Below are positions 5,843 to 49,978 of a stretch of DNA of 64,000 nt, piece by piece. Positions within the stretch are counted from its first letter, which is position 1. Every line of letters begins with the position of its first letter. The position numbers and the translations under genes are program-made. The stretch covers positions 18,352,001 to 18,416,000 of the forward strand of contig OX597840.1 in the NCBI GenBank assembly GCA_951406725.2, read 5' to 3'. This stretch comes from Octopus vulgaris. Its lineage: Eukaryota. The notes under the pieces are model-generated. The model saw only the letters and a list, made by a program, of their open reading frames with translations, made no database searches and was not told the origin of the DNA.

Positions 5843-5910
<68 letters not shown>

Positions 5911-7616: not shown

Positions 7617-7619
<3 letters not shown>
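6511..7619 (+). mobile_element. Non-coding Penelope-pLTR/retrozyme-like element: inverted arm plus partial tandem repeat (period 583 bp)
   Basis: 6511-6802 is the reverse complement of 6851-7141; 6851-7037 recurs directly at 7434-7619; hammerhead at the repeat junction; both ends abut (TA)n. Confidence 0.75.
7340..7430 (+). ncRNA. Type-I hammerhead ribozyme (family H2)
   Basis: CCTACG-CTGATGA-GAAA...TTTC-GAAA-CGTACG-TC^CGTAGG: perfect 6-bp stem I, intact core, palindromic stem III, predicted cleavage after 7424. Confidence 0.87.
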
Positions 7620-7883: not shown

Positions 7884-8048
7884 TTATCCGATGAAGAGAT
7901 GGCGACGTGGATTTCCACCCCGACATCCGAAACTCGGAGTTTTATCATGGCTACCAAATAATTGTCACATATTACATTTACAGATAAATTCTTCTGTTTA
8001 CATAAAATCGAGGTCTCTTTATTCTTTTGTTGTCTTACCATTTCTATC
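7884..8048 (+). mobile_element. Decayed copy of hammerhead family H4 element (core damaged)
   Basis: Aligns to 30208-30365 but CCGATAACTGAAGA is reduced to CCGATGAAGA; GAAACTCGGAGTTTTATC is retained. Confidence 0.7.
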
Positions 8049-8049
8049 A

Positions 8050-8130
<81 letters not shown>

Positions 8131-11165: not shown

Positions 11166-11615
11166 GGATCTTTTCGGTTTGACCAGCAGTTTTTTAAAAT
11201 AATTTCCACGTAACTAAACACTTTTAAACTTCGTATACTGGTAGAATGTGTTTATAAAACGTCTTTTTCTTTTGGCTTTATTGAGAAAATTCTATAGTTT
11301 GTAAGATATTTATTGTTTTTTTCTTCAATTTCTGCAATTTCAACCAATCAATGACGTCTCTTGAGGTGAAAACATTCTGTGCCGTATGAATATGTCCCTC
11401 GTTTAAGAAACAGATTGGGTTTATTTACATTTGTGAAGAAAAAAAGATACCCTTCTCCCCACCCCTAACCCTAACCCTAACCCTAACTAACCCTAACTCT
11501 AACCCTAACCCTAAAACAGATTGAAATGCAATAGATCGATACTAGGGTCATAATTATGGGTGACAATTTCATATGACACCCCTAGAAAAAACTGCCGGTC
11601 AAACCGAAAAGATCC
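11166..11615. mobile_element. MITE with ~29-bp TIRs, near-perfect 8-bp TSD and internal (CCCTAA)n tract
   Basis: GGATCTTTTCGGTTTGACCAGCAGTTTTT ... AAAAACTGCCGGTCAAACCGAAAAGATCC; flanks AATAATTG / AACAATTG; CCCTAA repeats at 11463-11514. Confidence 0.82.
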
Positions 11616-12536: not shown

Positions 12537-12855
12537 GAGACCACCGTCGGTCATGACTGACCTTGGGATTGCACCTAGAAAGTTACCCTCTCAGGCACAA
12601 TTCCGGGCAAGGTTGTTTATGGAAGACCAGCAGTCGCCCATGCATACCAGCCTCCCCTCTCCATGCCACCAGTGTTATCCAAGGGAAAGGCAAAGGGGCC
12701 GATACAGCTTGGCACCAGTGATGTCACAACTCATTTCTACAGCTGAATGAACTGGAGCAAAGTGAAATAAAGTGTCTTGCTCAAGAACACAACACGCAGC
12801 CCGGTCCGGGATTCGAACTCACAGCCTCACGATCGTAAGCTCTACGCTATAACCA
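12537..12855 (-). mobile_element. tRNA-derived SINE (family B)
   Basis: B-box GAGTTCGAATCCC on the minus strand, shared central module, tail matching copies at 21205-21446 and 53830-54152. Confidence 0.85.
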
Positions 12856-15320
12856 CCCCATGTAACAACCCATGCAGCATCATCAACTTTCTCGTCCTTC
12901 TATCCAGTATTGATATTTCCTCCTTAGTCCATCTGAGGATGGACGCACTATATCTGACCACCGCAACTGCCCAGATATTCATTGCGGTAATCAAATTTTC
13001 GGAATTCAGATTGGATTTCAACACCATCTTCACCCATTTTTGATACGCCTCGCTGACCTTGACTTTCATTTCTCTGTGTAAAATGTCATCCAGCTCCCAA
13101 ATCCCTAAATATCTATACCCACAATCGTCGGGTTTACCCATGGTCTCTCCTGATGGTAACCGCAATCCTCTGCAGGATGCTTTCTTCCCTCTTTTCATAT
13201 TAATACTGAGCATTTGGTAATCCCAACTTCCATACCGATGTCTTTACAACTCTTCTAGACTGTTTTTGGTCAAAGAATGTATCTTTTTTTCAGATTTACC
13301 AAACAATTTAAGGGCTTCCATAAACAGAATTTGATTCTATGACAGGCTTTTCTTTCTCCCGCCGGTAACCCATCTTAACTTTCCTAAGTGCCATTGTTAT
13401 GAGTATTAGTTCAATTACAAATATTTACGGAGAAAACGAGTCACCTTGGAAGATTCCCTTTTTAATATTAACTTCTCCAAGTACAATTTGGTTTTCCACT
13501 CTTCCATGCTATGCATCAGAAAGTTTGTGATGTTGTCAACAACACCAAACACCTGCAGGCATTCAACGATCCAAAAATGAGGCATCATATCATATGCCTT
13601 CTTAAAGTCAATCCAAGCCGTAGATATGTTCGTATGATGTTTTTTTACAATGCCTCAAAACTGTTTTATCGATGACCAGGTGATCCTTGGCACCCTGAGA
13701 ACTCTTCCTACATCCTTTTTGTTCCCTTGGTAGTATTTCTTCCTGTGCTAGGAAAGTACATGTCTTTGCCGCACATATTCCAATGAGTATCTTCCAGATT
13801 ATATTTATGCATGATATCTTTCATTAAAAGTGTTGTCCTCCAAGTCACCATCCAGCGGGGATTGTACCTTTCTGGACACACTCATTCAATTGGGCTGCTA
13901 GTCTTTAATGCACCGCGTGGCATCTCTTCAGCCAAAAGCCATGAATCCCTTCTGGTCCGGTGGCTTTCCAGTTAGGCATTTTACCCACTTGTTTTTTCAC
14001 ATCACCCGTGCTTATGACAATATTCCTTTGTTTCTTTCTTCCTTGTGATTCTGTCTTGATAGTTCCTATCTATATTGCAGCCCTTCTATGCACCACATTG
14101 TTTCCCCATAAACCGCTCCAGAACTCCTTGGCTTGATTTGCATCAAGAGCAATATTTTCCCCATTGTCTCCTAACGTTCGGAAGAATTGCTTCGGGTTAT
14201 TTTTTTAACTATCTGTTCCCCTCGAACTACTTATTTCTGTTGACAAATATTCAGATCTGTTTTGTCTTTTTGTTTTTTTGCCATGATCCTATGTTTTAAC
14301 TGCTCTATTACTGCCCCAAACCCGATCAACCGTATTTTATATTTCTTCTCTAATTTTTCTCGGTCGGTCCTTTTCCCATTTTTCCAGTTCCCTCCTAACC
14401 ATTGCTCAATTCTTCCTAGATCTTGCCTTACCCGCATCATGTTGCTTTCAATGCGTCATTTTCACCATGGTTCTTTTGTTCCACCATTTTTAGTTCTCTT
14501 AAGTTGTAATTTCTCCTCAGCAAGTAGTGCAATAGCTCAGAGAAGATTCCCTGTTTGTGTTAAGTCTGGATATATTCATCTTTTCTGTTACTTTATTTAT
14601 CATAATCCTATCTACCCGTCTTCACATTCATGGAGATTTCTTCTTCTGGAGCATCCATCAACTCGTTGAGTCGTCTTTGAATTTCAATCAATTCATTATC
14701 TAATTGGTTCATTTCCTCTGCATGTCCACCCACCACAGTATCAGGGTTCACTCTATAACGCTCCTGTTCCTCATCCTTAACAGCCCCATCACCATTTCCC
14801 TGTTCCTCCTGTCTACTCTTCTCCCTGCTTTCAACTCCGACCTCTCTGTTTTTAACTCCAACCATCCTTTGTAGCCCAACCGCAGGGTCTCTCAGACTCT
14901 CACTAATCCGAGATATTTCTACTCCAGTTGAGTGACCCTTCCTTCTAATCACTCTCACTTGGTTCATTAGTTTCTTATCTGACATCGAACACAGGTCCTT
15001 TTCCATCCAAAATTTCAAGATACGTCGGCCTACTCAGCGACTTCTTTCCAGCTTTGCTCTTTCATGACATTCAATAAGTGTATCGAACTCTTCCTTCATC
15101 AACACCGTGTTTTTGCGCACACCGTGTATGTGATCTGTTGTGACATAACGACCGTCCTAGGCCAGATCACTGCCCCTGATGCGGGCGGTTTCGGACGTGC
15201 CGGGCGGGAAACCTTCACCATGATCTGCTATAGCTTCATTCTCGCCGTTAAATCTTTCCTGGCTTATTGCATCAAAATTTCATGAGTCGTTCGTGGGGTT
15301 CTCACGAGAGTTGTTATTGA
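12856..15320 (-). mobile_element. Decayed R4/Dong-clade (RLE-type) non-LTR retrotransposon, N-terminus to RT; 3' part missing at a SINE junction
   Basis: Frameshifted motifs KLMNQVRVIRRKG, GPEGIHGFWLKR, AWIDFKKAYDMMPH, GIFQGDS, YRYLG, and NIWAVAVVRYSASILRWTKEEISILDRRTRKLM characteristic of R4/Dong RT-thumb. Confidence 0.82.
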
Positions 15321-18451: not shown

Positions 18452-18526
<75 letters not shown>

Positions 18527-18552
18527 GAAATATTAAAATTACTAAGTCTCTC

Positions 18553-18611
<59 letters not shown>

Positions 18612-23260: not shown

Positions 23261-24000
23261 ACGTCTCTGGGACCCCTAACCTAGGATTACCCCAGCCCCA
23301 TTGAGTCAACCCATAAAATGGGTGGATAGCAACTGTACAGAATCCTGTCGGATGGACTGTACCCGTAATTCAAAAGGTGCACCCATGTCAGTCATTGTGT
23401 CACGCTTATTCTGGCTGAGAATTACATTAAGGGTGCAGATGTCAGTGGAATACTCAGCCACTTATAAGTTAAATAAGGGGCAGGTAATTCAGTGGATCGA
23501 ACAACTAAATCCTCGTTGTCAAACGGCAAAGATCCACCACCACTTGGTTTAAAACCTTCATTTCTAACAAAACCTATGAAACTCCTCTAAACAACCAGCA
23601 CTACCCTAGAACATCTTTGACATTTGCGATCCCCCAAAGTACTCACAACGCCCCCGAGGGGACAGTAGCTCCGAGTTTGAGAACCATTGCTCTATTGTCC
23701 TTAAAAACAAGGGTGCGTTGGATAATATAGTCCTTCATGTGGGATGGTCACGGTAAGGGTAGTTTCGATCGTTAGATCGGCTCCACCCGGATTAAAGAGC
23801 AACCAGAAAGAAAGGATGGTAAGAAATACGAAATACAGTAATGGAGGGTGGGGTAGGGATGGGGGGTAAAAAATATTTATGATTGAATTGTGATTATTTA
23901 TTATTGATATTTATTGGAAAAAAACTAATAAACATCGATATCATGACCTTTTGCTTACAATACAGTGTGTTAAACTTTGGATAAACAGGCACACCGGTGT

Positions 24001-24034
<34 letters not shown>

Positions 24035-24077
24035 AATCACTCAATCTATCTATCTATCTAAATATATGGATATGTAA

Positions 24078-24112
<35 letters not shown>

Positions 24113-24241
24113 GCGTGTAATAAATTTGACTCGGCTCTACGTCCTACACGTCAGATGTTCGGAGATGGTGTAGAGAATTTAAGACAAATCCATTTCTCTT
24201 AAACTTAGGTCTCCATTAGCACACACAAACACACACACACA

Positions 24242-24281
<40 letters not shown>

Positions 24282-24286
<5 letters not shown>

Positions 24287-24724
24287 CATAGGGGCATCAG
24301 CCATCTGAATGTGGCTAGGGACAGGGCAGGGCGGTGGGGGTGTTACTGATGCATTTAGCCCCAGGCGATCATCAACGTCACCAGGAGGGCTGACACCATC
24401 TCGGTGTCCTCTAGCCTGCAAAAGGGAGATCATTCCCCGAAGAAGCGGATGCTACATACGGACCAGGTTTCAAGGTCTTTGCCTATTATCAACGCGAGCG
24501 GTGCTTACCATGCGTTGATAATAGGCAAAGACCTTGAAACCTGGTCCGTATGTAGCATCCGCTTCTTCGGGGAATGATCTCCTTTGCAGGCTAGAGGACA
24601 CCGAGATGGTGTCAGCCCTCCTGGTGACGTTGATGATCGCCTGGGGCTAAATGCATCAGTAACACCCCCACCGCCCTGCCCTGTCCCTAGCCACATTCAG
24701 ATGGCTGATGCCCCTTATGTTATA
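24282..24724. repeat. GC-rich fold-back inverted repeat, arms about 212 bp, loop about 16 nt, starting at a TA tract
   Basis: ORFs 24309+ and 24696- translate identically for 38 aa; arms differ only by a small indel and a terminal mismatch. Confidence 0.95.
24496..24564 (+). ncRNA. Hammerhead-like ribozyme with U3-A8 core variant (family H3)
   Basis: GCGGTGCTTAC-CATGCG-TTGATAA-TAGGCAAAGACCTT-GAAA-CCTGG-TC^CGTATG-TAGCATCCGC; extended stem I, weak stem II (U.U at its base). Confidence 0.6.
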
Positions 24725-24766
24725 GAGCAGTTACTGTTTATATCTCGTCTAGAGATTTATTATTGC

Positions 24767-25270
<504 letters not shown>

Positions 25271-25291
25271 CATATATATATAAATATATAC

Positions 25292-25361
<70 letters not shown>

Positions 25362-25376
25362 TTATATATATACATA

Positions 25377-25434
<58 letters not shown>

Positions 25435-25823
25435 ATAAATAAATAATCACAATTCAATCATAAATATTTTTTACCCCCCATCCCCACCCCACCCTCCATT
25501 ACTGTATTTCGTATTTCTTACCATCCTTTCTTTCTGGTTGCTCTTTAATCCGGGTGGAGCCGATCTAACGATCGAAACTACCCTTACCGTGACCATCCCA
25601 CATGAAGGACTATATTATCCAACGCACCCTTGTTTTTAAGGACAATAGAGCAATGGTTCTCAAACCGGAGCTCGTCGATTGTGAGTACTTTGGGGGATCG
25701 CAAATGTCAACCACTAGGGTAGTGCTGGTTGTTTAGAGGAGCCATAGGTTTTGTCAGAAATAAGGTATAACCAAGTATATATATTGACAACGAGGATTTA
25801 TATTCGATATATATATGATTTAT

Positions 25824-30078: not shown

Positions 30079-30087
<9 letters not shown>

Positions 30088-30303
30088 GTGGCAGTTATTC
30101 GGTAGCCATGATAAAACTCCGAGTTTCGGATGTCGGGGCGGAAAATCCACGCTGGCATCTCTTCAGTTATCGGGCCATCGAAAAAAAATGAACATTTTTT
30201 TCGATTGCCCGATAACTGAAGAGATGCCAGCGTGGATTTTCCGCCCCGACATCCGAAACTCGGAGTTTTATCTTGGCTACCGAATAACTGCCACATATTA
30301 TAT
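30079..30303. repeat. Fold-back inverted repeat, arms about 110 bp, 2-nt loop, carrying two back-to-back hammerheads
   Basis: Centre AAAATG-AA-CATTTT; arms nearly perfect; left end abuts (TA)n. Confidence 0.95.
30207..30277 (+). ncRNA. Type-I hammerhead ribozyme (family H4); mirror copy on the minus strand at about 30105-30175
   Basis: GCCCGATAA-CTGAAGA-GATG...CATC-C-GAAA-CTCGGAG-TT^TTATCTTGGC; near-palindromic stem III, GUU triplet, one extra C before GAAA. Confidence 0.7.
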
Positions 30304-30495
30304 TTACAGATAAATTCCTCTATTTACATAATATCGAGATTCTTTCATTCTTTTGTTGCTATCAATATATATATATTAAGTGTCAAGATCAATCATATTA
30401 TATCCGGTTCTTGACAGATGAATTCCTCCGTGTTTATTTATCATAATATCGTTCTTGTCCATGTTGTCTTTTTCTACATACCTTCTTTTGTTATA

Positions 30496-32400: not shown

Positions 32401-33544
32401 CAAGCATTTGGAAAAGGCATTTATAATTGAACTTTACATGTTTCAGTCATTGGACAGCTGCCATACTGGGGCACCGACTTGAAAGGGTCTGTTTTTTTTT
32501 TTACCTTTTTAACCGTCCCCCGTACTTATTTTAAAGTCTGGTGTGACTTATTCTATCAGTCTATAAGATTCAAGGACGTAAAGAAACGTATACCGGTTGT
32601 TAAGCAGACACAAGCGCGCGCGCACATATATGTATGTTAATTCGGTAGATGGAGCCAGTGGCACTCTGTCGTGTGTGCGCGTGTTTACGCATACAAGACA
32701 ACTCTCACCAGTTTCCGACTACCAAATTCCCTCACAATGAGTTGGTTGGCTTAAGGCTGGAACTGAACTCGGAACCATGCTGTTGCCAAGTATGCGTCTA
32801 AACCACACAGCCATATGCTCACACACATAAGCAGAGAGAGGGGGAGATAGAAAGGAGGGAGAAGGGTGGGAGAAAGAAGAGAGAGGACAACGGAGACGTT
32901 AAAACGACTGATGTCAAATAAGTCATCGTTGAATCAGCGCCGCCAAATAAGCGGAGCCAAAACGGCTGCGCCATAACGTCTCATGCCTCACCATCACCCT
33001 TATCGTATGAATCTTTTCATATAACTGTTTAAACGTGCGTATGTATGGGGTTGGTGTATGTATTAGTATGTATTAGTGTGTATTAGTGTGTTAGTATGTG
33101 TGTATAAGTGTGTGTGTGTGTGTATGAGAGAGTATAAGTGCGTATGAGGGGTCTGGACGTGTGTATGTATAGGGTTGGTGTATGTATTAGTATGGCACAT
33201 CATATATGATGTGATGTGTAAAGTCGTGTGGTGTAGTGAGGAGAAGAGGGGGAGGGGAGAAGAGGGGAGGGGAGAAGAGGGGGAGGGGGAGAAGAGGGGA
33301 GGGGGAGAAGAGGGGGAGGAGAAGGGGATGGGAAGAAGAGGGGGAGGAGAGGGGAGAGGGGGGAGGAAGGAGGAAAGAGGGAGAGGGTGAGAGAGAAGGG
33401 GAGTGAGGGAGCAGAGGGAAGGGGAAGAGGGAAGGAGGGAGGGAGAAAGAGGGAAGAAGAAGGAAGGGGAGTAGGGGTGAAAGGATGAAGGACTGAAGAA
33501 GTAGGGGTCGGGGGGAAGGATATGTGAGGAGGGGGAGAGGGGGG

Positions 33545-34867
33545 TTAGATGAGGAGGGGGGAGAGTTGAGACCAAATGGCGTATAAGAGCGAAGAGAGAA
33601 GATTAATTCCTGTTCACGGCGCAAACGGGAATCCGGATGGCCTCTGTGTAAGGACAAACCGAACACAGATAGGTGTTGCAAGGAGTGACCGGTGGAGCGG
33701 AAATGGTGTGAGACCGGTGTGTCGTTCGCAAGGTGGATGTCACGAAGGTGTTCCACGAACCGGTCAGCCAAGCGGCGTCCCGTTTGTCCGATGTACAAGG
33801 AATGGCAGAGAGAGCAAGAGACGCAATAGATAATATTGCTGGAGGTGCAGGTGAAGGAGTGGATGATGGGATAGGGTCGATGGTGGGTGCTAGTGAGGAG
33901 GGTGGTGTTGGAGAGGTAAGGGCAAGTGCGGCAACGTGGGCGGGAGCAGGGGAACGAGCCGGGTTGGGAGGTAGGGTCAGGGAAGGAACTATGGACCAAA
34001 AGGTCTCGAAGGTTGTGGGCTCGTTTGAAAGAGGGGAGGGGTCGGTTAGGGAAGAGGTGTGAAGTGGACGGGTCGGACTGGAGATGACGGAAAGCTCGAA
34101 GAATGGTGCGTTGGAGACGTAGGGTCGTGGGGTGGTAAGTGAGGGGAAAAGGGAGGCGGGAGACTACAGGGCGGGTTCGGGGAGAGAGAGCAGATACACG
34201 GTCCACGGACCGTGCTCTGGCAAGGGCGGTGTGGATAGTGGTGAGGGGGTATCCACGTAGGGTGAAGTGGTGAGCCATACGTTGAGACTGAGTCCCAAAG
34301 TTATGGTCGTCACTACAGAGCCTACGTAGACGGAGGAATTGGGAATAGGGGATGGAAAGCTTGGTGTGTTCTGGGTGGGAGGAAGAGAAGTTGAGGTATG
34401 AGTGTGAGTCTGTGTGTTTGTAGTGAATGGAGGTGGTAAGAGTGGAGTGAAGAATGCTAACCGAAATGTCGAGGAAGGAGACAGAGGTGTTGGAGATAGT
34501 GGAAGTGAAGTGGAGGGCTGGATGGAAAGATTGGACGAAAGAGAGGAAGGAATCTAGATGTTCACGGGAGAGTGAGGTGGCACCGATAATGTCGTCAATG
34601 TAACGACCATATAGTTCAGGAGTGGGACCAGTGAAATTAGAGAATATTTGGGCCTCAACATAGCCAACGAACAGGTTCGCATAGTTGGGGCCCATTCGCG
34701 TTCCCATGGCCACTCCCGAGACCTGATGGTAGAACTCGCCCGCGAACGAGAAGCAGTTCAGAGTAAGGACAAGTTCGGCCAGACGATTGAGTGTGGAGGT
34801 GTCAGGTACAGGGTTAGAGAGAAGGTCAAGACAGTGTCGAAGGGCCTGCAGTCCTTCGTGGTTAGGG

Positions 34868-34872
<5 letters not shown>
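33545..34872 (-). mobile_element. Penelope-like element (Neptune-type) RT + GIY-YIG endonuclease ORF, 5'-truncated, reading frame uninterrupted
   Basis: IPNHEG, GVAMGTRMGPNYANLF, RYIDD, FLD, YKHTDSH.YL..SSSHP, Cys linker CSRPRCRTC, NIIY..SC..C...YIGQT, RF.EH, HF, PFGLN; 5' end abuts (TA)n; the ORF track's extra N- and C-terminal residues are SINE/microsatellite read-through. Confidence 0.95.
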
Positions 34873-34899
<27 letters not shown>

Positions 34900-34918
<19 letters not shown>

Positions 34919-35105
34919 TCATATATACTGGCATTGGTGTGTTTACGTCCCCTGTAACTTAGCAGTTCGGTGAAAGAGTACGATAGAATAAGTACCAGGC
35001 TTAATAAAAGATAAGTCCTGGGGCCGATTTGTTTCACTTAACCCTTTCAAGGCGGTGCTCCAGCATCGCTACAGTCAAATAACTGAAACAAGTGAAAAGC
35101 AAGAG
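34900..35105 (+). mobile_element. SINE family A, 3' half
   Basis: GGTGTGTTTACGTCCC..GATAGAATAAGTACC..ACTGAAACAAG. Confidence 0.8.
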
Positions 35106-37701: not shown

Positions 37702-37768
<67 letters not shown>

Positions 37769-37824
37769 TACACACAAGGAAGTGGCTGAAAAGTTCCTGG
37801 TTTTGAATAAATGAAAATACAGGC

Positions 37825-38150
37825 TATATGCTTACCAACCACATGGTTCCGGGTTCATCAGTAATAACCAAAGCCTTGTGGGGGATTGACGGAAACTGAA
37901 AGAAGCCCGTCGTATATATGTATATATATATATGTGTGCGTGTATGTTTGTGTGTCTGTGTTTGTCCCCCTAGCATTGCTTGACAACCGATGCTGGTGTG
38001 TTAATGTCCCCGTCACTTAGCGGTTCAGCAAAAGAGCCCGAGAGAATAAGTACTGGGCTTACAAAGAATAAGTCATGGGGTCGAGTTGCTCGACTAAAGG
38101 CGGTGCTTCAGCATGGCCGCAGTCAAATGACTGAAACAAGTAAAGAGAGT
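37825..38150 (+). mobile_element. SINE family A with internal deletions
   Basis: Family A sequence blocks. Confidence 0.82.
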
Positions 38151-38153
38151 ATA

Positions 38154-38224
<71 letters not shown>

Positions 38225-38278
38225 GAAATTTAAAATTACAAAGTCTCTCTAAAAGAGAACAGCGGCAGCGTTCCCGGA

Positions 38279-38392
38279 AAATAATAGTTATCGCCATACT
38301 AATATGGCATTCTTATAAAAATAAGAATAAAGCTGTCCGCTTATTCTTATTTTTATAAGAATGCCATATTAGTATGGCGATAACTATTATTT
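38279..38392. repeat. Perfect 52-bp-arm fold-back, 10-nt loop, between TA tracts
   Basis: AAATAATAGTTATCGCC...AAGAATAA-AGCTGTCCGC-TTATTCTT...GGCGATAACTATTATTT; single-arm copy at 48931-49011. Confidence 0.95.
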
Positions 38393-38418
38393 ATATATAT
38401 ATATATGCACACATACAC

Positions 38419-38632
38419 ACAAGGAAGGGGCTGAAAAGTTCCTGGTTTTGAATAAATGAAAATACAGGAGGATCAGTTATGATTTTATTCAACATATTCC
38501 CCTCTCAGATTCAGACACTTATTGTGGCGGTCCTTCGGTTTTTCTAAGTCCTGTAAAAAAAAACTCAGAAGTTTGGGTCTACAACCAGGCCTTTCTCGAT
38601 CCCCTTGAAGCCAGAAACTTTTCAGCTCCTTT
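38419..38632. mobile_element. Mariner-derived MITE
   Basis: Imperfect TIRs GGGGCTGAAAAGTTCCTGGTTTT / AAGCCAGAAACTTTTCAGCTCC; internal TTCAACATATTCCCCTC resembles the reverse-complemented mariner transposase end (GEYVE). Confidence 0.65.
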
Positions 38633-38647
38633 TTTGCGGGTCTCTCT

Positions 38648-38712
<65 letters not shown>

Positions 38713-38740
38713 TATCTATCTATCTATCTATTTATCTATT

Positions 38741-39142
38741 ATGGCTGCCCCCTCCTTATCGAGTATGACCATTGCACGAAGCTTAACTGTTATTGGTGCT
38801 GTGATCGAATGTGACTTTTTAGCCCAGCTAAAGATCTACAATGTCTTGTACAGAATTGGCAGCTAAAACCTTTACCGGTAATAGCCGGCTGTAGTTGTAA
38901 CTGGGCTTCATGTACCTTTGCATGTCGTTTAAGTCCTCCTGCCGAATTACACTCTCTTCCACATGCCCGACAGATATGATTAGTATGGTGTGTCACACCA
39001 CCACCAGTGGCCAGGCTGTCACTCATCTGTCTCGCTTTATTACTACGAAGATGACTCATGAGTCCAGCTTTACTGAGGCAGGGTCTTGCACAGATATTGC
39101 ATGTCAGAATCAAAGGAAGACCCTTCCCTTCTGGAAGTGTAA
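38741..39142 (-). mobile_element. LINE-like 3' fragment encoding three C2H2-type zinc fingers (second copy 55847-56118)
   Basis: CNIC..AGLMSHLRS, CRAC..GGLKRHAKVH, CQFC..AGLKSHIRSQH, then stop and short UTR; two copies share the 3' end and differ in 5' truncation. Confidence 0.7.
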
Positions 39143-39261
39143 CACATACATACATACATACATACATATAGATATATACTTTTATAAAAGCATTCGTCGG
39201 TCAGTTGTGATCATACTAGATTAAAATTGAGATGGTACATTTAATATAATATTAGGTATCA

Positions 39262-39450
39262 CATTTCTTCTTCTTCTTCTTCTTCTTCTTCTTCTTCTTC
39301 TTCTTCTTCTTCTTCTTCTTCTTCTCCTTCTTCTTCTTCTTCTCCTCTTCTTTTTCTTTTCTTCTTCTTCTTCTTCTTCTTCTTCTTCTTCTTCTTCTTC
39401 TTCTTCTTCTTCTTCTTCTTCTTCTTCTTCTTCTTCTTCTTCTTCTTCTT

Positions 39451-39480
<30 letters not shown>
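39262..39480. repeat. (TTC)n trinucleotide tract
   Basis: Directly visible. Confidence 0.97.
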
Positions 39481-39481
<1 letters not shown>

Positions 39482-39767
39482 TCAGGATTCATGCCATTAG
39501 CCACAAAGAATAATCTCTAATTCGAGCCTACTCTAAGCTACTAAGAATGCGTGTGGCAACTTGAAGATCCACCCACCACACGCGATAGACTGGCGGTTGC
39601 ATGGGCACGAAAGATACGTTGTTATCCTCATTCTGTAAACGGTGGCTTTTAACGGGTGGAGAGCTGAACCATCCTTGGGTACAGAGGATTCGTAATCTAG
39701 ACTAGAGTCTGAAAGTTTACCACCCCATAGTGGGTTACACCAAGGTTCCTCTGCTTTGTGGCAGAAG

Positions 39768-39947
39768 TAGGAAGAAAGAATGAGAGAAAGTTGTGGTGAG
39801 AGCGGGTTCCTGCCCTTCCCCCCCCCCCCGAACCCCGGAGCCTCGTGGAGCTTAGGTGTATTTCCTCGATAAACACTCACAATGTCCGGTCTGGGAATCG
39901 AAACCGCGAGTCTGTTGCCCTAACCACAGGGCCATTGCGCCTCCACT
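39768..39947 (-). mobile_element. tRNA-derived SINE (family F), 5' part
   Basis: Minus strand GTGGAGGCGCAATGGCCC.GTGGTTAGGGCA..GGTTTCGATTCCCAGACC head. Confidence 0.7.
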
Positions 39948-39966
39948 CTGCTGCTGCTGCTGCTGC

Positions 39967-39997
<31 letters not shown>

Positions 39998-40229
39998 ACT
40001 GAGTGAGGGGCGTAGTTTGGTGATTAGGGTATTCGGCCCGCCATCGAAAGGTTCCGAATTCGATATTCCCGGTGGGACGTTGTGTTCTTGAGCAAGACAC
40101 TTTATTTCATGTTACTCCGCTGCACTCAGCTGGCAAAAATGAGCCGTTTCCATATTTCAAGGGACCAACCTTGTCACTCTTTGTGACACGCTGAACCTCC
40201 CTCACGACTATATTTAAAGATTAGTAATT

Positions 40230-40331
40230 TTGGTGGCGGTGGTGGTGGTGGTGGTGGTGGTGGTGGTAGTGGTGGTGGTGGTGAGGAAAATAAGAATAGA
40301 TATTGTCATCATCACCATCATCATAATCATC

Positions 40332-40363
<32 letters not shown>

Positions 40364-40408
40364 CATCATCACGACCATCATCATCATCATCATCATCATC
40401 ATCACGAC

Positions 40409-40443
<35 letters not shown>

Positions 40444-40448
40444 CGACC

Positions 40449-40500
<52 letters not shown>

Positions 40501-40504
40501 CGAC

Positions 40505-40589
<85 letters not shown>

Positions 40590-42091
40590 GTTGTCGTCAT
40601 CACCACTCCCATTATCTCCACCATTGACATCGCAATTATCACAGATGTCAACAATGTTACCATCACCACCGCCACCACCACCACCCTCCTACCACCACCC
40701 TTAAAACCAGTTCTGTTAACACTCTTCGTTACTTCGATTAAACACAACCGTAGTCATGATGATGATGATGATGAAGAAGATGGAGGTGCCGATAGTCCAT
40801 GATTGATGGTGGTATTAGGTTTCAAACGGTGACGGTGTTGATGATGGTGGTGGTGGTGGTGGTGGTGGTAGGAGTGGAGGTTGTGATGATAGAAGAAGAA
40901 GGAGTAGTTGTGATGGCGATGGTGGTAGCGGTGATGAAGGTGGTGGTGGTGGTGACAGCAATGGTGGTGGTGGATGGTGGTGGTGGTGGTGCTGCTGCTG
41001 CTGCCGGTGCTGGTGGTAGTGGTGGTAGTGGTAGTGGCGGCGGTGTTGGTGCTGGTGCTGGTGGTAGTGGTGATGGCAATGGTGGTGGTGGTGGTGTTAG
41101 TGGTGATGGTGGTGGTGGTGGTGGTGGTAGGAGTGGAGGTTGTGATGATAGAAGTAGGAGTAGTTGTGATGGCGATGGTGGTAGCGGTGATGAAGGTGGT
41201 GGTGGTGGTGATGGCGCTGCCGGTGCTGATGGTAGTGGTGATAGCATTGGTGGTGGTGGTGGTGGTTCTGATGGTAGTGATGGTGTTGATACCATTGACC
41301 AAGCCTAATTACCTTCTCCCCAACACTGGTATCCACTGGACGAGATGAATAAACAATGGCAGAGGAAAATAAACAGAGACAGGGAGACGAGGCCTGCCTC
41401 TCTGTGTGTATGTGTATAGATGTGTGTGTATGTATGTGCGAGTGTGTGTATGTGTGTGTATGTATGTATGTGTGTGTGTATGTATGTATGTATCTATGTG
41501 TGTATGTATGTATGTATGTATGTATGTGTGTGTATGTATGTATGTATGTATGTATGTATGTATGTGTATGTATGTATGTATGTATGTATGTATGTATGTA
41601 TGTATGTATGTATGTATGTGTGTATGTATGTATGTGTATGTATCTATGTGTGTGCTTGTATGTCTGTGTATATGTATGTTAAAGTGTGTGTACGTATGCA
41701 TGTATGTATGTGTATCTATGTATGTATGTGTATGTATGTGTATGTATGTGTATGTATGTATGTATGTGTATGCATGTATGTGCGAGTGTATGTGTGGGTA
41801 TGTGTGTATGTATCTATGTGTGTGTATGTATGTGCAAGTGTATGTATGTTTGTGCGTATGTGCGAGTGTATGTATGTCTGTTTGCATGTATGTATGTGTG
41901 TGTGTGTGCATATATGGCTGTATATATGTGTCTGTATCCATCTATGTATGAGTACGTGTAATGTGTGCATGTATGTGTATGTACTATGGGTGTATGTACG
42001 GATATATCTGTGAATGAATATATATATATACATGTACGTATGCATTATACTTGTATGTACGAACCTGTGTACGTATGTGTGTGCGCGTGCC

Positions 42092-42123
<32 letters not shown>

Positions 42124-42540
42124 GAAACAGAAATAACTTTGATAGGAGACAACAATAAATGATATAAATCGAAAATATAATATATATACACCCACACATT
42201 CTTTTGCACTTTATGCACGAATCTATTCCTATATCTGTCACTGTGTGAAAGTGCATACATACATACATACATACATACATACATACATACATACACATAC
42301 ATACATACATACATACATATAACACATACATATAACACATACATACATACAATATATATATATATATATAAACATAGATACATACATACATGCACATACA
42401 TACATATACATACATACACATACATACACATACATACATATAAATGTGTATATATGTGTATATATATAATGTATATAAATAAATATACTTATATATATGT
42501 ATATATATATTTATATACATATATATAAAAATATACATAT
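40230..42540. repeat. Low-complexity block: (CAT)n, (GGT)n with ~260-bp internal duplication, (GTAT)n, (CATA)n
   Basis: GGTAGGAGTGGAGGTTGTGATGATAGAAG occurs at about 40866 and 41126. Confidence 0.9.
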
Positions 42541-42582
42541 AAATATATATAGAGAAAGAGACAGACAGACACACACACAGAA

Positions 42583-42629
<47 letters not shown>

Positions 42630-43009
42630 CTCTCACAAACCCTTATGTACTTTTACATATACACCCACATTCATATATATATAAATATCCGCTTAATGCG
42701 TGTACGTGGTTATTGACTCAAACAAACGAATTTAGGCGTTTGATGCAGAAAGCTATATTGAGTTCTGATATCACCAATTGTTTACCATCTATAAAATGTG
42801 CATTATAACGTTGTGTATGCATATAGATATCACATGATCACGTGATATCACGTGAGCGACCAGGCCATCAGATGTTGATACTCATCGCTGGTCACAATGC
42901 GCTTCGCATTGTTTTAGCCTTCAATGACGCCACCTCGCTGGCTAAGCGAGCAGGTCAGCTTATAGATATATATATATATGTATATGTATGCATATGTGAT
43001 GTGTGTTTG

Positions 43010-43064
<55 letters not shown>

Positions 43065-43360
43065 TATACCACAGAGGAAAAAGACATTATGCTATCAACT
43101 CTATGTTTCTAAGAAAACCCTTTTTAGGAATTTTCTTCTCACAAAAGTGTCCCAAATGAAGACGGCTGAGATGGTGCGTGGACAGCTAAATAGAAAAGAG
43201 CGTAGTATAAAATTACCTGAGGTCCAAGGTTTTTTTTAATGTTATGACTAAGAAGTTTTGCGCCGGAATAACATCAGCTGTACAGGAAATTTATTCAGGA
43301 AAGCAGTGAAATATATTTATTAAAATCCGCCCTCTATGGCTTCATTACTTCACATATATC

Positions 43361-43575
43361 AAGGCAGCGAACCGGCATAATCGTTACCACGTTGATCAAA
43401 ATGCCGAGCGCTCTTTCTTCCAGATTTACGTTCTGAGTTCAAATTTCGCCGAGGTCGACTTTGCCTTTCGTCATTTCGAGATTGATAAAACAAGTACCAG
43501 TTGAACTCTAGGTTCAATGTAATCGTCTAACCTTTCCCTCTCATTTTCAGGCCTTGTGGTCGTAGAAAGAATTAT
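43361..43575 (+). mobile_element. SINE family E
   Basis: AAGGCAGCGA..TTCTGAGTTCAAATT..GAGGTCGACTTTGCCTTTC..AAGTACCAG. Confidence 0.78.
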
Positions 43576-43617
43576 TTTACAGTTCTTTAGTTTAATGCTT
43601 AAAATACATATTTTAAA

Positions 43618-44877
43618 TATTAGATTGTTTCACATCAATTGTCGTATTTGAAAGTTAACAATAAAATGTTTCAGAAGTGTTGGAGAACTGATTTATTTAA
43701 TCAAAGTATGATCCATGTTCATTTATGACGTTTACCCAACGTTTCTCTATCTCATATATTCCATCTTTAAAAAAAAAAAATTCATCTTTTGCTGTGATGT
43801 CCGAATCTTTTGCATCTTTTGTCCGAATGCTTCAATTACCTCTTCTCTATTTAAGAATGTCTTATTGCGTATGAAAAGCTCAAAATGCTTAAATAAGTGA
43901 TGATCAGTAGGAGAGATATCAGGGGAATAGGGAAGATGTTACAAAATCTCATAATTCAGGCTTTGCAACTTTGGGACCATAGCTTGAGGAGTGTGAGGAT
44001 GTGCATTGTCGTGGAGCAAAATTGCGCCATCTCTATTCACTAGTCTGGGTCGCTTCTTTTTCAAATTCTCATGCATACAATCAATTTCCTGGCAATGCGA
44101 TGTTCCTGTTACCGTTTTTCCTTGTTGCAAAAACGAATAATGAATAACTCCCTTCGCAGACCACCATACAGTGACCACTAACTTTTTAGGGTAAATGGCG
44201 GGTTCGGGTGGTATTTAGGTGACTCTCTTACATCTAATCACTGTGTTGTTCTCCTGCTATTGTAAAAAAAGTATCCATTTCTCGTCACAAGTAATGATTT
44301 GATGCAAAAATGGTCTTTTTCCAGTCGAGAAAGCAATAAGGAGCACACTTCGAGCCTTTGTTTTTTATAAATTTCGATGAGTTGATGTGGAACAAACCTA
44401 TCTGTTTTCTTGACTTTTCCAATTTTTTACAGGTGTCCAAAAACAGTTGAGTGAGATCTTTGGAGTTCTGATGAAGTTCTCCGATTCTGTTCAACTAAAG
44501 CATTTAACTCATCATGCCGAATAACTGATTTTGGCCTACCCCTTGGTCTATTTTCAAGACTATCATCTCTTGAACGAGAGCTTTGGAACCATCTCTGAAC
44601 AGTTCTGATGTCAACAAAACCATTACCAAAGGCCCGCTTGATATTCCGTAGAGCTTCTGCAGCATAGTGACCAAGTTTGTACTCATACGAGAAAATAACT
44701 CAACATAATTTGGTTGTTATCATTTTTATAAGGTCTGTGGGTACGAATTTTGTATACCAATATTGTTGAGAAAGAAAAAGAGTCAGGATTAAACGCAAGG
44801 TATACATAATTGAGTTTTTAAATGACTGAAATAACAAGTAATTAAAAATGTGATATTTCATGTGGAACAACCTAATA
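43618..44877 (-). mobile_element. Full-length (about 1.26 kb) decayed mariner transposon
   Basis: TIRs TATTAGATTGTTTCACAT / ATGTGGAACAACCTAATA with terminal TA; transposase remnants MVTVWWSAKGVIHY, LLHDNAHPH, PYSPDISPTD with stops and frameshifts. Confidence 0.92.
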
Positions 44878-45637
44878 TTTTAATACGTCTGTTTAACTAG
44901 ATGAATCGCTATCAAAAATAGAAAAACAGAAGAGAAAAAACATTGCTGGTTTTCATTTGATGAGAGACTGCGACAAGATACTCTTTCTGTATAAGAAAAG
45001 TTGTATACCAAAAACAGCACATTTGTTAAACTTTGTATGAAAAATATCCAATTTATATTTACAAATATTTAACCATAATACCATGTTTTTCCTTCGTCGG
45101 AGTGACGAGGAGCATCTTGTCCTCTTAATTCTGCGGGGGTTTTAAAGTGAAGAAAAGTTGCGCATCATCATCATCCTTTTTCCGTCTGCGACCATCTTCA
45201 ATCCAGTGGCAACACAAGGTGAAGAAGACCGCTAGCGTAGCTAGTGTGCCACCCGGGGTGGCCCTTCCGTTTGCTGCCCTCGGACCCCATAAAAAACACA
45301 TACTGCCTACAGCAGACCCAAAAGTGGTATTCCTTTAAATGTGCTGCCCGGGACGGACAGCCCCGCTCCAGCTACGTTAGTGGTCAAGACGACTGGGGAT
45401 AGAGACGGATGCAGTGGATGACCAAGATGTCTTACTCGCCTCATCGTGTTTTCTGCTCTCCGGAAGGCATGGCTGCGGCTGCCTTCCTCTCCGCTGAACC
45501 ACGAAGGTTTCTTCAAACAAGTCTACCGTATCCAGCCTTCACATGCATGGGTAGGCAAACCCTAATATGCTAAGTAACCCACAGCTGGGACCCTGACAGG
45601 TGTTAGCTACTATTCCGGGTCAGAGTAGACCTGGGAA

Positions 45638-45845
45638 TAATCCTTTCTACTATAGACACAAGGCCTGAAATCTTGAAAAGCGGGATAGTCGATTACATCG
45701 ACCCCAGTATTTCACTGGTACTTAATTTATCGACGCGAAATGATGAAAAGCAAAGTCGGAATTTGAACTCCGAACGAAGCGACGGGCAAAATACCGCTAA
45801 GCATTTTTCTCAGCATGCTAACGATTGCGCCAGCTCGCCGCCTTT
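45638..45845 (-). mobile_element. SINE family E
   Basis: Reverse complement begins AAGGCGGCGAGCTGGC. Confidence 0.78.
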
Positions 45846-47088
45846 AGGCCCGGGAATAATGTTGGATAAGAGGGGCTTCCACATTCCTCAAGACCCTGGA
45901 GCCCCCTAACTAGAGCCCCGCGACCAGATACAGTTTAAAGTTACTTCCAGGACAAAATTTTGTTTCAAAAACACGCACAACTACACAAACACACACGCAC
46001 ACACGCACATACACACACACACACGCACACACAAGCACGCACACACGCATGCACACACAGACACATATTCGCACACACACGCACACATAGTCACACACAC
46101 GTGCGCGTACACACATACATACACACGCGCACATACAGGCACGCACACACGCATGAACACACAGACACACATTCGCACACACACGCACACACACTCACAC
46201 ACACACGTGCGCGTACACACATGCATACACACGCGCACAAACACGCACACACACACACACGTATGCACGTATATGTATGCATGCATGTATGTATGTATGT
46301 ATGCGTGCGTGCGTGTATGTATGTATGTATGTGTGCGTGCGTGCGTGCGTGCGTGTATGTATGTATGTATGTATGTATGTATGTATGTATGTATGTATGT
46401 ATGTATGTATGTATGTGTGGGTGCGTGCGTGCGTGCGTGCATGTATGTATGTGTGCATGTATGTATGTATGTATGTATGTATGTATGTATGTATGTATGT
46501 ATGTGTATGTATGTATGTATGTTTATATGTATGCATGTACTACGGCGAGGTCGACTATGCTTTTCGTCCTTTCGGGGTCAATAATGTAAGTACCAGTTGA
46601 GCACTTGGGCCGATTCCCCCCCCCACTCGCCCAAACTTGTGCCAATACAAGTATTTAAGAGTGCTGCAGTTTGATTTCTCCATAGTACCATTTATTCCTA
46701 TTCCTCTGTCCTTGACACCTTTCTTTTTTATCTCTGATTATTGCAAACTCTTTCACACACTTTGCAATGGCGTACTTGATATGGAAGTTCTCAAATATAA
46801 GTGGGTCAGATTTAAACAAAAGGGCCTTTAATAAATATAAAACGTACCACTACTCAATCGCTTTCTGAGATGATCAAGTGTATGTTAAATGCTAAAACCA
46901 GCAGCTTTAAAACAGTGGTTGGTGGTGGTTGGAGATTAATTCCAAGAATTTAAACAAAGTTAGGTACAAGCAGGCCGTGGCCGTGGGATTCTTGCGACTA
47001 CATGGTTTCGGATGTCAGTACTATAACGCAGTATCTTGAGCAGGTGTCTTGGTAGACGGATACTGCAGGGAAGCCCGTCATATAAATG

Positions 47089-48190
47089 TATTGGGTCATC
47101 CCATAAATAATGCGGTTTTTTCAAATGCATGAACTAAAAGTCGGAGCAGCGGGGTGGGATAAACTACCTGCATCGACTTGCTATAAAAGCAGGTTGTAAT
47201 TTTACCTTGTCCTTATTCTTAATGCAAGTTTTGAAGAGTGCAGTTCGATTGTAACATTTATAGATGCTTTCGATCAAGTTTGGATTCTTTGCCATCAAAT
47301 TTGAATTCTTTGCAATCAAATTTGAATTCTTTGCAATGAAATTCGAATTTTTCAATTGGTGCTCAAGCCTTGAAAAAAAACACACACTTATAGCTGCCTC
47401 TGATAGGCAGTATCAGTCGTAAGGTAATCCAAATTAGATCGAAAACATCTACATTTTTTCAAAGTTATAATGGAAGTGACAAAGAAGACTATTCGACATA
47501 TTTTGCTTTATGAGTTCAATAAAGGCAACAACAAAACGGAAAGTGTGAGGAATATTAATGCAGTAACAGGGATTGGACAATAAGCGTAAGCCAGTATCAG
47601 TCGTGGTTCCGAGCCAGAAACTACAGACTCGGAGATGAGCCTCGTGCTGGAAGATCTGTAGGGCTCGGCGAGGACGTCCTGCATATACTGATGGCAACAA
47701 AATCCCATTGTAATTGTTGAGGAACTAGAAGGGAAGCTTAGATTTTGTCATTCAACCATTCATCGACACCTGCATGCTATCGGAAAACAACCATCGTTGG
47801 TTCAAGACGAAAGGTGTTCTTCCATCAGGTTAATGCTTGGCTACATCCAGCGAGGACGACTTTCCAAAGGCTGAAGCGGTTTGAATGGGAAACGATGTCC
47901 CACCCATCATATTCGCCGGACATTGCCCCATCTCATTATCATTTATCATTCATTTGGATGGAAAAAATATGAATTCTGTATATGAGGTCAGAACAGTACT
48001 GGAGGAGTATTTTTCATCAAGGACAAGTGAATTTTGGAAAAGGGGCCTTGCAAGTCTACCAGATAGAGGGAAGAACATTGTAGAAAATGAAGGGGAGTAT
48101 ATTTTAAATTAAAAAAGAACTTCGTTTATCTTTAATTTTGAAAAATTAAAGAAGTATAAAAATCTGCACTATCCATGAGATGACCCAATA
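47089..48190 (+). mobile_element. Internally deleted mariner transposon, nested in the TA tract of a decayed SINE A
   Basis: TIRs TATTGGGTCATC / GATGACCCAATA; MEVTKKTIRHILLYEFNKG at 47470; HPSYSPDIAPS; VENEGEYILN end; 21-bp tandem repeats at about 47280-47350. Confidence 0.9.
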
Positions 48191-48498
48191 TATATGAGTG
48201 TGTGTGTGTGCATGTGTGCGCGTGTGTGTATGTGTGTGTGTAAATTGTAAAGGAATACCCCAAAACGATTACCAGTTTGCTCTCAGTTAGGCATTCAAAA
48301 TATGTTATTCAACAGTTAAAATACAAATCCAATAAAGTTCTTATAAGACAAGAAATTGGAGGAATATTCCGTTGGATAATTCTGAATACATTTCCTTAAC
48401 CATTTTGGTTTCCTGGAGTATAAACGTTAACAATATTAACAATAAGGTTCACTACGAAGTTCCATAGCATTACTTTTAATTCATGAATTCATACACCT

Positions 48499-48665
48499 AT
48501 AGGCACAAGAGTGGCTGTGTGGTAAGAAGCTTGCTTACCAGCCACATGGTTCCGGGTTCAGTCTCGCTGCATGGCACCTTGGGCAAGTGTCTTCTACTAT
48601 AGCCTTGGGCCGACCAAAGCCTTGTGAGTGGATTTGGTTGAGACGGAAATTGAAGGAAGCCCGTC

Positions 48666-48712
<47 letters not shown>

Positions 48713-48912
48713 TGTGTGTCTGTGTTTGTCCTCCCAACATCGCTTGACAACCGATGCTGGTGTGTTTACGTCCCCCGTAACCTAGCGGTTCGGCAAAAGA
48801 GACAACTAGAATAAGTACTAGGCTTACAAAGAATAGGTCCTGTGGTCGATTTTCTCGACTAAAGGCGGCGGTCCAGCATGGCCACAGTCAAGTGACTGAA
48901 ACAAGTAAAAGA
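48499..48912 (+). mobile_element. SINE family A, full length
   Basis: Complete head, body and tail. Confidence 0.9.
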
Positions 48913-49007
48913 TATATATATGAATATATATGGCCTCATGGAGCTAATAAGCGGACAGCTTTATTCTTATTTTTATAAGAATGCCATATTAGTATGGCGA
49001 TAACTAT

Positions 49008-49074
<67 letters not shown>

Positions 49075-49465: not shown

Positions 49466-49652
49466 CACATACTTTATAATTAGGGTTCAGCAAAGATTTG
49501 CTTTACCACATACCGAAGTTTAGAAATAGCAGCCAAAAAACCTTAGCTATTTCTTCTACTTTAAAACGGGACTCCCAGAAAAACCAAAATACTTGAAAAT
49601 AATCCACACAGGCAGAGAGGAAAAATAACGAAAATCAATCAATATCTGGTCA

Positions 49653-49735
49653 CCCATGGACGCGCGTTTCGGAATTAGATCGGTATAAAGAATATAGAAT
49701 TATACTTAACCAACCATTTTCTTCATCAGCATGGG
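49653..49735 (-). ncRNA. Type-I hammerhead ribozyme, diverged relative of H2
   Basis: Minus strand CCCATG-CTGATGA-imperfect long stem II-GAAA-CGCGCG-TC^CATGGG; flank 49478-49580 resembles 6625-6720. Confidence 0.8.
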
Positions 49736-49978
49736 ACTCCAACAATATTAAATATTGAAATATTAAATTCAAATGTACTGGAATAATTGAACATATCTCT
49801 CCACCTAACGGTATCAGACAGATCATATTCAGTGTTAGTACCGCCGAATTCAAAATATGAATGAGGTTCATCACCTTCTCCTGCCCATCCGCGCGTGTCG
49901 TCAAGTAAAATACTACAGAATAAATTATTAATCATATATATATATATATAAATTAAAACAGATTAGGAGATCGAAAAT

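Follow-up and report, generated by a model that had tools for sequence, protein, structure and literature searches.

A one-tailed palindrome between TA tracts in Octopus vulgaris, and twin priming of a probable Penelope-like retroelement as its favoured origin

How a fragment of a dispersed repeat comes to lie head to head with its own inverted copy, with a tail on one side only, is the question raised by a hairpin at 38279–38392 of the stretch of DNA analysed here (64 kb; the window). The hairpin is a perfect inverted repeat of 114 bases, whose 52-nt arms (38279–38330 and 38341–38392) are identical at 52/52 positions and enclose a 10-nt spacer, AGCTGTCCGC. On its left, a (TA)36 tract (38150–38221), which closes a SINE-like repeat copy (37824–38148) and appears to be the left part of the target site, is followed by a 57-nt tail on the minus strand (38222–38278), and then by the left arm, the spacer and TTATT, which together make up native minus-strand sequence that is 5'-truncated at 38345 (38279–38345). 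The element most likely has its sense on the minus strand. The junction (38326–38345) consists of AATAA (38326–38330) and TTATT (38341–38345) on either side of the spacer. The right arm (38341–38392, plus strand) is inverted and tail-less, and its outer end is the equivalent of 38279, the second common terminus of the family. The initial annotation had the hairpin strand copied back to its own TA tract, which lies 57 nt away from the left arm; instead, the right arm breaks off at 52 nt and abuts another tract, (TA)7 (38393–38406), putatively the right part of the target site. The hairpin is made of two end fragments, both truncated, of a single TA-targeting, high-copy repeat placed head to head, an orientation that we infer from the TA ends together with two hammerhead-bearing fold-backs elsewhere in the window, in which the 5' ends face the centre.

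Comparison with a single copy of the same repeat at 49 kb confirmed that the two diverge directly after TTATT: positions 38280–38345 match the minus strand of 49011–48946 at 66/66 positions, after which the single copy continues AGCTCC and the hairpin CTTATT. In read contigs, the loose ends behind 38345 read AGCTCCATGAGGCC in 4/4 runs (1, 12, 2 and 2 contigs), so that AGCTCC is the continuation of the family, as had been proposed, and the hairpin is the derived form and not itself the consensus. The continuation CTTATT was absent among the contig loose ends listed behind 38345. A fall in contig depth towards 38345 was set aside as a sign of a polymerase stop, since divergence of the reference there could cause it. 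The single copy (48930–49011, plus strand) is tail-less and 5'-truncated, lies between TA-rich sequence and (TA)28, and, like the hairpin, stands at the end of a SINE-like copy (48498–48913). The right arm of the hairpin matches native sequence out to 38279, the 49-kb copy out to 38280. The latter is not one half of a before-and-after pair, as first supposed, nor a precursor of the hairpin, but a sibling among a very large number of copies, inserted separately at a TA tract of its own.

Contigs in 4/4 runs cross the boundary between tail and arm at 38278/38279 (for example 38250–38309, 38231–38305, 38230–38327 and 38214–38309), and the 57-nt tail is native to the repeat. Further contigs have loose ends with AT-rich flank ahead of 38279, 38280, 38282 and 38284, which indicates that this very high-copy family has two termini; these would correspond to two start sites of reverse transcription. 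A third insertion in the window, a 31-nt fragment of the outer end of the tail (18524–18554, minus strand, 29/31 identical) lying between two TA tracts, begins at the tail (outer) terminus. All insertions of the hairpin's repeat in the window (3/3) adjoin (TA)n, and none carries poly(A). At the hairpin locus, there is no tandem, and a target-site duplication is unreadable inside the TA tract. The left outer end of the hairpin lies at the tail terminus and the right at the inner terminus, both on TA, and both look like primed start junctions. At the right-arm end, just 1 nt of sequence is TA-like, so that it resembles a start junction and not a microhomology join; at least 3 nt of such sequence occur at 11/109 positions of the would-be copy-back strand.

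An assembly or library artefact was also considered, namely a read that had folded back into a chimera or TA tracts that had been joined wrongly. No contig or joint spanning the hairpin was found among those listed, contig depth was zero at 38382–38430 (which was not taken as proof of absence), and the best runs contained 41% of the sampled words of 38222–38640. Depth at 38350–38381 was not counted in support of the hairpin, because contigs from the arms can be placed twice (15, 36 and 15 records). A direct duplication of 62 nt flanks the hairpin region, and consensus errors might account for the indels between the arms of two fold-backs (24286 and 6081). By contrast, the right arm ends at a terminus that is biologically used, and the same layout, with a native tail on one side, recurs in unrelated families. 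In addition, the runs may come from other individuals or species, the mapping left out repeats from 38378 onwards, and contigs can show presence but not absence. We regard an artefact as very improbable.

The repeat is probably a Penelope-like retroelement. In the 124 nt present at the hairpin locus, there was neither an ORF nor a hammerhead that would tie it to these elements; Rfam gave 0 matches in the window, and the three matches of a hammerhead motif scan of the window were all in other families. An ORF with reverse transcriptase and GIY-YIG domains at 33502–34938 (weak Pfam matches, E 0.02 and 0.33; Atlas 0.95) had no self-BLAST link to the repeat in the window. Another ORF, which would open at an ATG near 38297 and read on across the tail, was dropped, a frequent contig variant being 1 nt shorter there. 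A repeat search of the entire window was dominated by microsatellites. Pattern scans for the repeat gave 0 matches in metagenome (first scan), viral and prokaryotic genome sequences. A second metagenome scan returned two loci that had no more in common with it than a 23-nt match each, and these were treated as chance; one of these matches (L002) sits within a prokaryotic-type reading frame. Neither of two 19-nt motifs of the repeat occurs in one supplement of PMC13282606, a paper on Octopus vulgaris repeats; the supplement is a 5-kb methods and table file and not the repeat library.

The turn itself falls, as originally noted, at a native 5-nt complement, AATAA/TTATT. Of 1275 random pairs of breakpoints on the native strand, 30 (2.4%) gave junction homology of at least 5 nt, and terminal stems of at least 5 bp are available at 10/65 of its positions. 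The match is real, and it is compatible both with snap-back and with the annealing of two cDNAs. The initial annotation had read it as the signature of self-primed synthesis. The native complement stands, and snap-back is an established class of event in target-primed reverse transcription (PMC11371274), but a 5-nt match is not specific, as two cDNA ends give the same sequence. Snap-back would require a tail-bearing cDNA to stop at TTATT, fold onto AATAA and copy itself, the copy then ending, or being cut by the endonuclease, at the tail boundary and joining the other TA end. Besides the native complement (p ~0.024), it would explain the identity of the arms, and there is precedent for it: R2 has documented snap-back junctions (PMC11371274), junction palindromes led in 2013 to the inference of self-priming in Penelope (PMC3846280), and the tail has been ascribed to endonuclease resolution of an intermediate (PMC8557442). 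The 5'-ATT-3' preferred by the enzyme studied in PMC11167929 occurs at the tail boundary. Short spacers are seen in several of the window's fold-backs (9, 10 and 16 nt, and ~2 nt at 30088).

Against this, the inverted arm ends at the second common terminus without copying through the 57-nt tail, so that a self-primed copy would have had to stop within a zone of ~6/109 positions and at 1 nt of TA homology. The stem is also predicted not to form: its pairing probability was at most 0.0001 in the tail-bearing strand and at most 0.015 without the tail, in folds of naked strands at equilibrium, whereas cDNA may stay hybridised to RNA. The spacer side (38332–38341) is instead predicted to pair with the tail (38261–38269) in a 9-bp helix with a probability of at least 0.9. 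Two native hairpins of -4.2 kcal/mol (predicted) were passed over by the junction, and the same 3' end offers a 6-bp alternative register. Nothing stood out in RNA folds of two other tails (tail-only stretches; z -0.53 and 0.55), so tail structure may not be a general feature. On balance, we consider snap-back unlikely.

Local inverted loci in the window, defined by arms of at least 35 nt with at least 85% identity spanning less than 3 kb, numbered 11 (12 rows, two of which are one locus). One arm sits at a TA tract in eight of the 11, at a gap of 0–4 nt in 7/8 (at 4977–5845, exact-arm ends give a gap of 3 nt and masked BLAST ends one of 15 nt); a random position lies as near to a TA tract in about 0.4% of cases. 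A TA-abutting arm is lacking in the other three (11161, 47374 and 54472). At three TA-anchored loci, the other arm bears an extension of 46–61 nt, and then TA. In the fold-back at 24286–24766, one arm is on (TA)n, and 46 nt separate the other from (TA)n; the fold-back at 30079–30364 has the same arrangement with ~61 nt, and this extension recurs in a copy at 7892–8060. Spacers of 599 and ~1500 nt occur with the same layout, which counts against snap-back. Outside their junction zones, the arms of the other inverted pairs differ at 1–3 positions, which has no diagnostic value.

The locus at 6511–7617 belongs to a different family and serves as a comparison. Its inverted arm (6511–6840) lies on (TA)n, and its direct copies (6845–7142 and 7395–7617) end on (TA)n, with a hammerhead-type motif at 7340–7431. 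The inverted arm combines sequence found only in the second direct copy (7395–7427) with sequence found only in the first (7035–7142), while 7143–7394 is missing from it; neither strand could serve as template for the whole of the other. Of the seven other TA-anchored loci, this is the one for which native junction sequence exists, and the suggestion that other fold-backs also turn at native micro-stems could be followed there: the junction (6511–7142) has a short templated insertion and no native 5-bp stem, and snap-back would need an extra template switch.

TA-anchored inverted pairs are common (8 loci) and come from different families. This suggests that a single step is enough, and so weighs against formation in two steps, in which a longer head-to-head repeat, or two opposite insertions in one TA tract, would have lost its centre by microhomology-mediated deletion at AATAA/TTATT. 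Each arm does end at a normal family terminus, as expected of independent insertions, and the family is abundant and TA-targeting. Long palindromes lose their centres. Microhomology-mediated deletions have been reported in Penelope copies (PMC3846280). The 100% identity of the arms and the 49-kb copy, however, leaves little time for two events, and we hold this route to be improbable.

We favour, by somewhat better than even odds, formation of the hairpin by twin target-primed reverse transcription, the two cDNA ends annealing at AATAA/TTATT; snap-back ranks well behind. Both ends of the cut TA tract would each prime one cDNA. The left target end would prime at the outer end of the tail and yield 124 nt (tail, arm, spacer and TTATT), and the right at the inner start site to yield 47–52 nt, after which the two 3' ends would pair over 5 nt and each be filled in on the other. 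The predicted 9-bp RNA helix between spacer and tail would stop a polymerase coming from the inner site at ~38331, whereas a polymerase that had begun on the tail would by then have unwound the helix. The hairpin locus alone cannot decide, because intra- and intermolecular pairing give identical final sequences; points in favour of twin priming include that only one arm carries the 57-nt tail, that neither strand at 6511–7617 templates the whole of the other, and that folding predicts no snap-back stem.

Some observations run the other way. The 52/52 identity of the arms is what snap-back predicts, and 3/11 inverted loci have no arm next to TA. The AAT of AATAA is also held in a predicted hairpin of the short cDNA, which hinders intermolecular annealing too. 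The 49-kb copy, although tail-less, reads past the predicted helix, so a stop there is not absolute.

The idea of self-priming is not new, and the hairpin's layout is a known signature of Penelope-like insertions; the useful part is the asymmetry of a tail on one arm only, which bears on how these elements make inverted repeats. PMC8557442 names the making of inverted repeats with a one-sided tail as unresolved. In the excerpts of PMC11167929 available, a purified Penelope-like protein, for which a dimer is predicted, cuts both target strands and extends each of them, starting at two RNA sites on either side of the tail, the same for both strands, and requires no homology to the cut DNA; these excerpts make no tie to inverted inserts. 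Among Creative-Commons PMC and bioRxiv papers, judged by listings and the starts of abstracts, we found none that applies twin priming to Penelope inversions. We tentatively suggest, at rather less than even confidence, that one-tailed palindromes are the footprint of a Penelope-like reverse transcriptase dimer priming both cut strands, one per RNA start site, with the tail-pairing RNA helix setting the inner cDNA stop. If true, inverted pLTRs and the one-sided tail would be explained by a single step. With ~8 TA-anchored inverted inserts per 64 kb, a genome-wide tally of where arms end and how they differ could tell twin priming from snap-back.

Among known systems, the hairpin's repeat shares with Penelope-like elements the (TA)n target, the lack of poly(A), 5'-truncated copies, a head-to-head inverted copy, an extension on one end only and two family termini; inverted 5'-truncated copies with the tail at one end and (TA)n targets are described for these elements in PMC8557442. 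The hairpin locus differs in holding 124 nt only, with no ORF, hammerhead or partial tandem, and in its tail of 57 nt, against the usual 30–40; a hammerhead ribozyme is expected in Penelope-like pLTRs and is absent in Naiads. A MITE or other fold-back DNA transposon would likewise present a short perfect inverted repeat next to TA, but the hairpin is not the family form, its ends differ from each other and truncation affects one side of the copies; a MITE or TIR transposon was rejected, as family copies continue AGCTCC without a second arm. Snap-back 5' junctions of R2 similarly have an antisense cDNA copy beside the truncation point, but in the R2 cases described in PMC11371274 one target end is primed and the end of the copy is tied to no second start site, whereas the hairpin's inverted arm ends at one. 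In L1 twin priming, settled by microcomplementarity of the two cDNA ends (10.1101/2024.08.27.596794), both target ends prime cDNA and the joining of the ends gives an inversion, as proposed here. In L1, the second primer acts at an arbitrary internal site and the arms hardly overlap, whereas each arm of the hairpin begins at a fixed terminus, the two termini being separated by 57 nt, which gives a palindrome with a one-sided tail.

The two arms of the hairpin, an inverted repeat at 38279–38392 (left arm 38279–38330, right arm 38341–38392), are complementary at 52 of 52 positions and flank the spacer AGCTGTCCGC. The minus strand of a single-arm copy of the same repeat near 49 kb (48930–49011) is identical, from 49011 to 48946, to 38280–38345 (66/66 nt). 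When Logan contigs from 4 of 24 listed runs (one presumed to be RNA, the others DNA or without a label) were aligned to 38214–38430, the loose contig ends beyond 38345 read AGCTCCATGAGGCC in all four (1, 12, 2 and 2 contigs), as the initial annotation had claimed for the consensus continuation past TTATT, and none of the loose ends listed continued as CTTATT. Because contigs of all four runs carry the non-hairpin continuation, the hairpin is a derived form of the repeat. None of the contigs listed for these runs spanned the hairpin or joined across it, with depth at zero from 38382 and repeats from 38378 left out. The assembly does contain the hairpin, whose structure is of a known class; that it is an artefact is very improbable. 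The 49-kb copy, previously read as the "before" of a before-and-after pair, lies in a separate TA tract and is a sibling of the hairpin, not its precursor. Both copies sit in the TA tract that ends a member of one SINE-like family (37824–38148 and 48498–48913), which is present many times in the window.

No TA tract adjoins the left arm, which is kept from (TA)36 by a 57-nt tail (38222–38278). Contigs crossed the tail/arm boundary in four of four runs, so the tail is native to the repeat, and in other contigs an AT-rich flank lay directly ahead of 38279, 38280, 38282 or 38284; together, these contigs indicate that the family has two termini. In each of the four runs, summed contig depth, which does not equal copy number, was lower over the tail than over the arm. 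The outer terminus is used by a fragment at 18524–18554 and the inner one (38280) by the 49-kb copy. The inner terminus (38279) is also where the hairpin's right arm stops; the TA-like match at this join is only 1 nt, while a copy-back strand would have a TA-like match of at least 3 nt available at 11 of 109 positions. The motif TAATAG on the plus strand opens both termini (38220–38226, 38280–38287). The one-sided tail makes the mechanism testable by counting.

The initial annotation attributed the hairpin to snap-back priming, in which one cDNA folds at TTATT/AATAA and copies itself. The 5-nt match cannot separate this from twin priming, in which two cDNAs primed from both cut TA ends anneal, because the two models yield the same junction letters; homology of at least 5 nt was present at 30 of 1275 random breakpoint pairs. 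Both outer ends of the hairpin lie at family termini on TA, an arrangement that twin priming would produce directly, whereas snap-back requires coincidence or an additional cut. In the tail-bearing strand, pairing of the AATAA/TTATT stem is predicted at no more than 0.0001, since the spacer is predicted to pair with the tail (at least 0.9) and AAT to lie within an 8-bp hairpin, and the junction bypasses two native hairpins of −4.2 kcal/mol in the predicted folds; both points count against snap-back.

A fold-back of another family, 6511–7617, bears on the same choice. Its inverted arm includes 7395–7427, found only in direct copy 2, together with 7035–7142, found only in direct copy 1, and lacks 7143–7394; neither strand can have templated the other in full, which favours twin priming. 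Its junction is a short templated insertion, with no native stem seen at the turn. Direct copy 1 begins at the equivalent of 7428, ~3 nt past the expected ribozyme cut of a motif at 7340–7431, a site we take from the hammerhead consensus. A motif scan gave hammerhead-type cores here (plus strand), at 5028–5113 and at 49652–49735 (both minus), each with a short palindromic stem III; Rfam gave no hammerhead match in the window at gathering thresholds. In both fold-backs with such a core, the 5′ ends point to the centre. The segment 7035–7617 resembles a 583-nt tandem monomer, and 49478–49737 is a relative (~70% alike).

Local inverted pairs were listed automatically (at least 35 nt, at least 85%, span below 3 kb), yielding 12 rows for 11 loci. 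One arm adjoined a TA tract in 8 of these, against a background of ~0.4%; the gap was 0–4 nt in seven loci and 3 or 15 nt, depending on end definition, at 4977–5845, and the remaining three (11161, 47374, 54472) had no TA-adjoining arm. The opposite arm extends for 46 nt (24286), 61 nt (30079) or 57 nt (38279) before its own TA tract, and the 30079 extension is native, as a third copy (7892–8060) carries it. The same layout is also seen with spacer lengths of 599 and ~1500 nt, which again speaks against snap-back. Further structures were a fold-back at 3499–3640, with near-perfect outer arms, a more diverged inner palindrome and ends on (TA)n and (AAAT)n; an AT-rich fold-back with a 9-nt spacer at 6081–6484, sharing a TA tract with that at 6511; and an inverted pair at 23506–25800, whose arms, ~1.5 kb apart, enclose the 24286 fold-back.

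Taken together, the outer ends, the stem predicted to stay unpaired, the templates and junction of 6511–7617 and the long spacers tilt the balance towards twin priming, which we modestly favour. Against it, the hairpin arms are identical to each other, the fold predictions leave out the RNA–DNA hybrid, and the AATAA of the short cDNA is itself partly paired in the predicted folds. Snap-back, which the identical arms would suit, is also helped by an ATT motif at the tail boundary that permits endonuclease resolution of the product and by the short spacers of several fold-backs; this reading may be right and has been published before, and it does not fit best. A two-step origin with deletion seems unlikely.

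The position of the junction may have a structural reason. Shuffled versions of the 124-nt sense strand rarely fold as well as the original (z −3.24; 2 of 200 equally good), and a predicted 9-bp helix (38332–38341/38261–38269) encloses two hairpins and a mostly unpaired inner terminus. The hairpin's two breakpoints flank one strand of this helix, such that a polymerase starting from the inner site would be predicted to reach the closed helix exactly at the end of the short arm. A frequent variant at 38262, carried by 9, 16 and 16 contigs of three runs, would change a G-C pair to G-U and so lends the helix weak, one-sided backing. The 49-kb copy extends past the predicted helix site.

The window is animal DNA in which microsatellites and dispersed repeats abound, and its SINE-like and MITE-like repeats are presumably akin to those in octopus genomes. 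A 62-nt direct duplication (37762–37823 and 38407–38468, one mismatch), each copy behind a TA tract, brackets the hairpin together with the SINE-like copy beside it; a long target-site duplication, which would also have doubled the start of a MITE-like element (~38424–38632, terminal inverted repeats alike at 21 of 24 positions), may account for it. A C2H2 zinc-finger frame and RT-like fragments on the minus strand (38793–39200, 4201–4914 and 12845–13243), with Pfam matches for the first two and none for the third, are probably pieces of LINE-type elements. An interstitial telomere-like repeat, (CCCTAA)9, lies at 11463–11514. An uninterrupted 616-codon frame at 33187–35037 (minus strand), with RT-like and C-terminal GIY-YIG-like parts, is probably a Penelope-like element ORF. 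The ORF at 33502–34938 gave weak RT and C-terminal GIY-YIG matches, and its Atlas neighbours have the same make-up. No link was found between this ORF and the hairpin's repeat family.

From its layout, the hairpin's repeat is likely, though unproven, to be Penelope-like, a group with 190 families in Octopus vulgaris according to PMC13282606. As described in PMC8557442, Penelope-like elements form 5′-truncated inverted copies with a 30–40-bp tail at one end at (TA)n targets, and the authors call the formation of these copies unresolved. The accessible part of 10.64898/2026.07.22.740005 holds nothing on junctions. PMC3846280 inferred self-priming from palindromes at inverted Penelope junctions, and snap-back junctions are documented for R2 in PMC11371274; self-annealing at L1-made breaks is described in 10.1101/2024.12.14.628481. 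For L1, 10.1101/2024.08.27.596794 describes twin priming closed via microcomplementarity between the two cDNA ends, and PMC11167929 shows a purified Penelope-like protein that cuts and extends both strands, starting at two RNA sites on either side of the tail.
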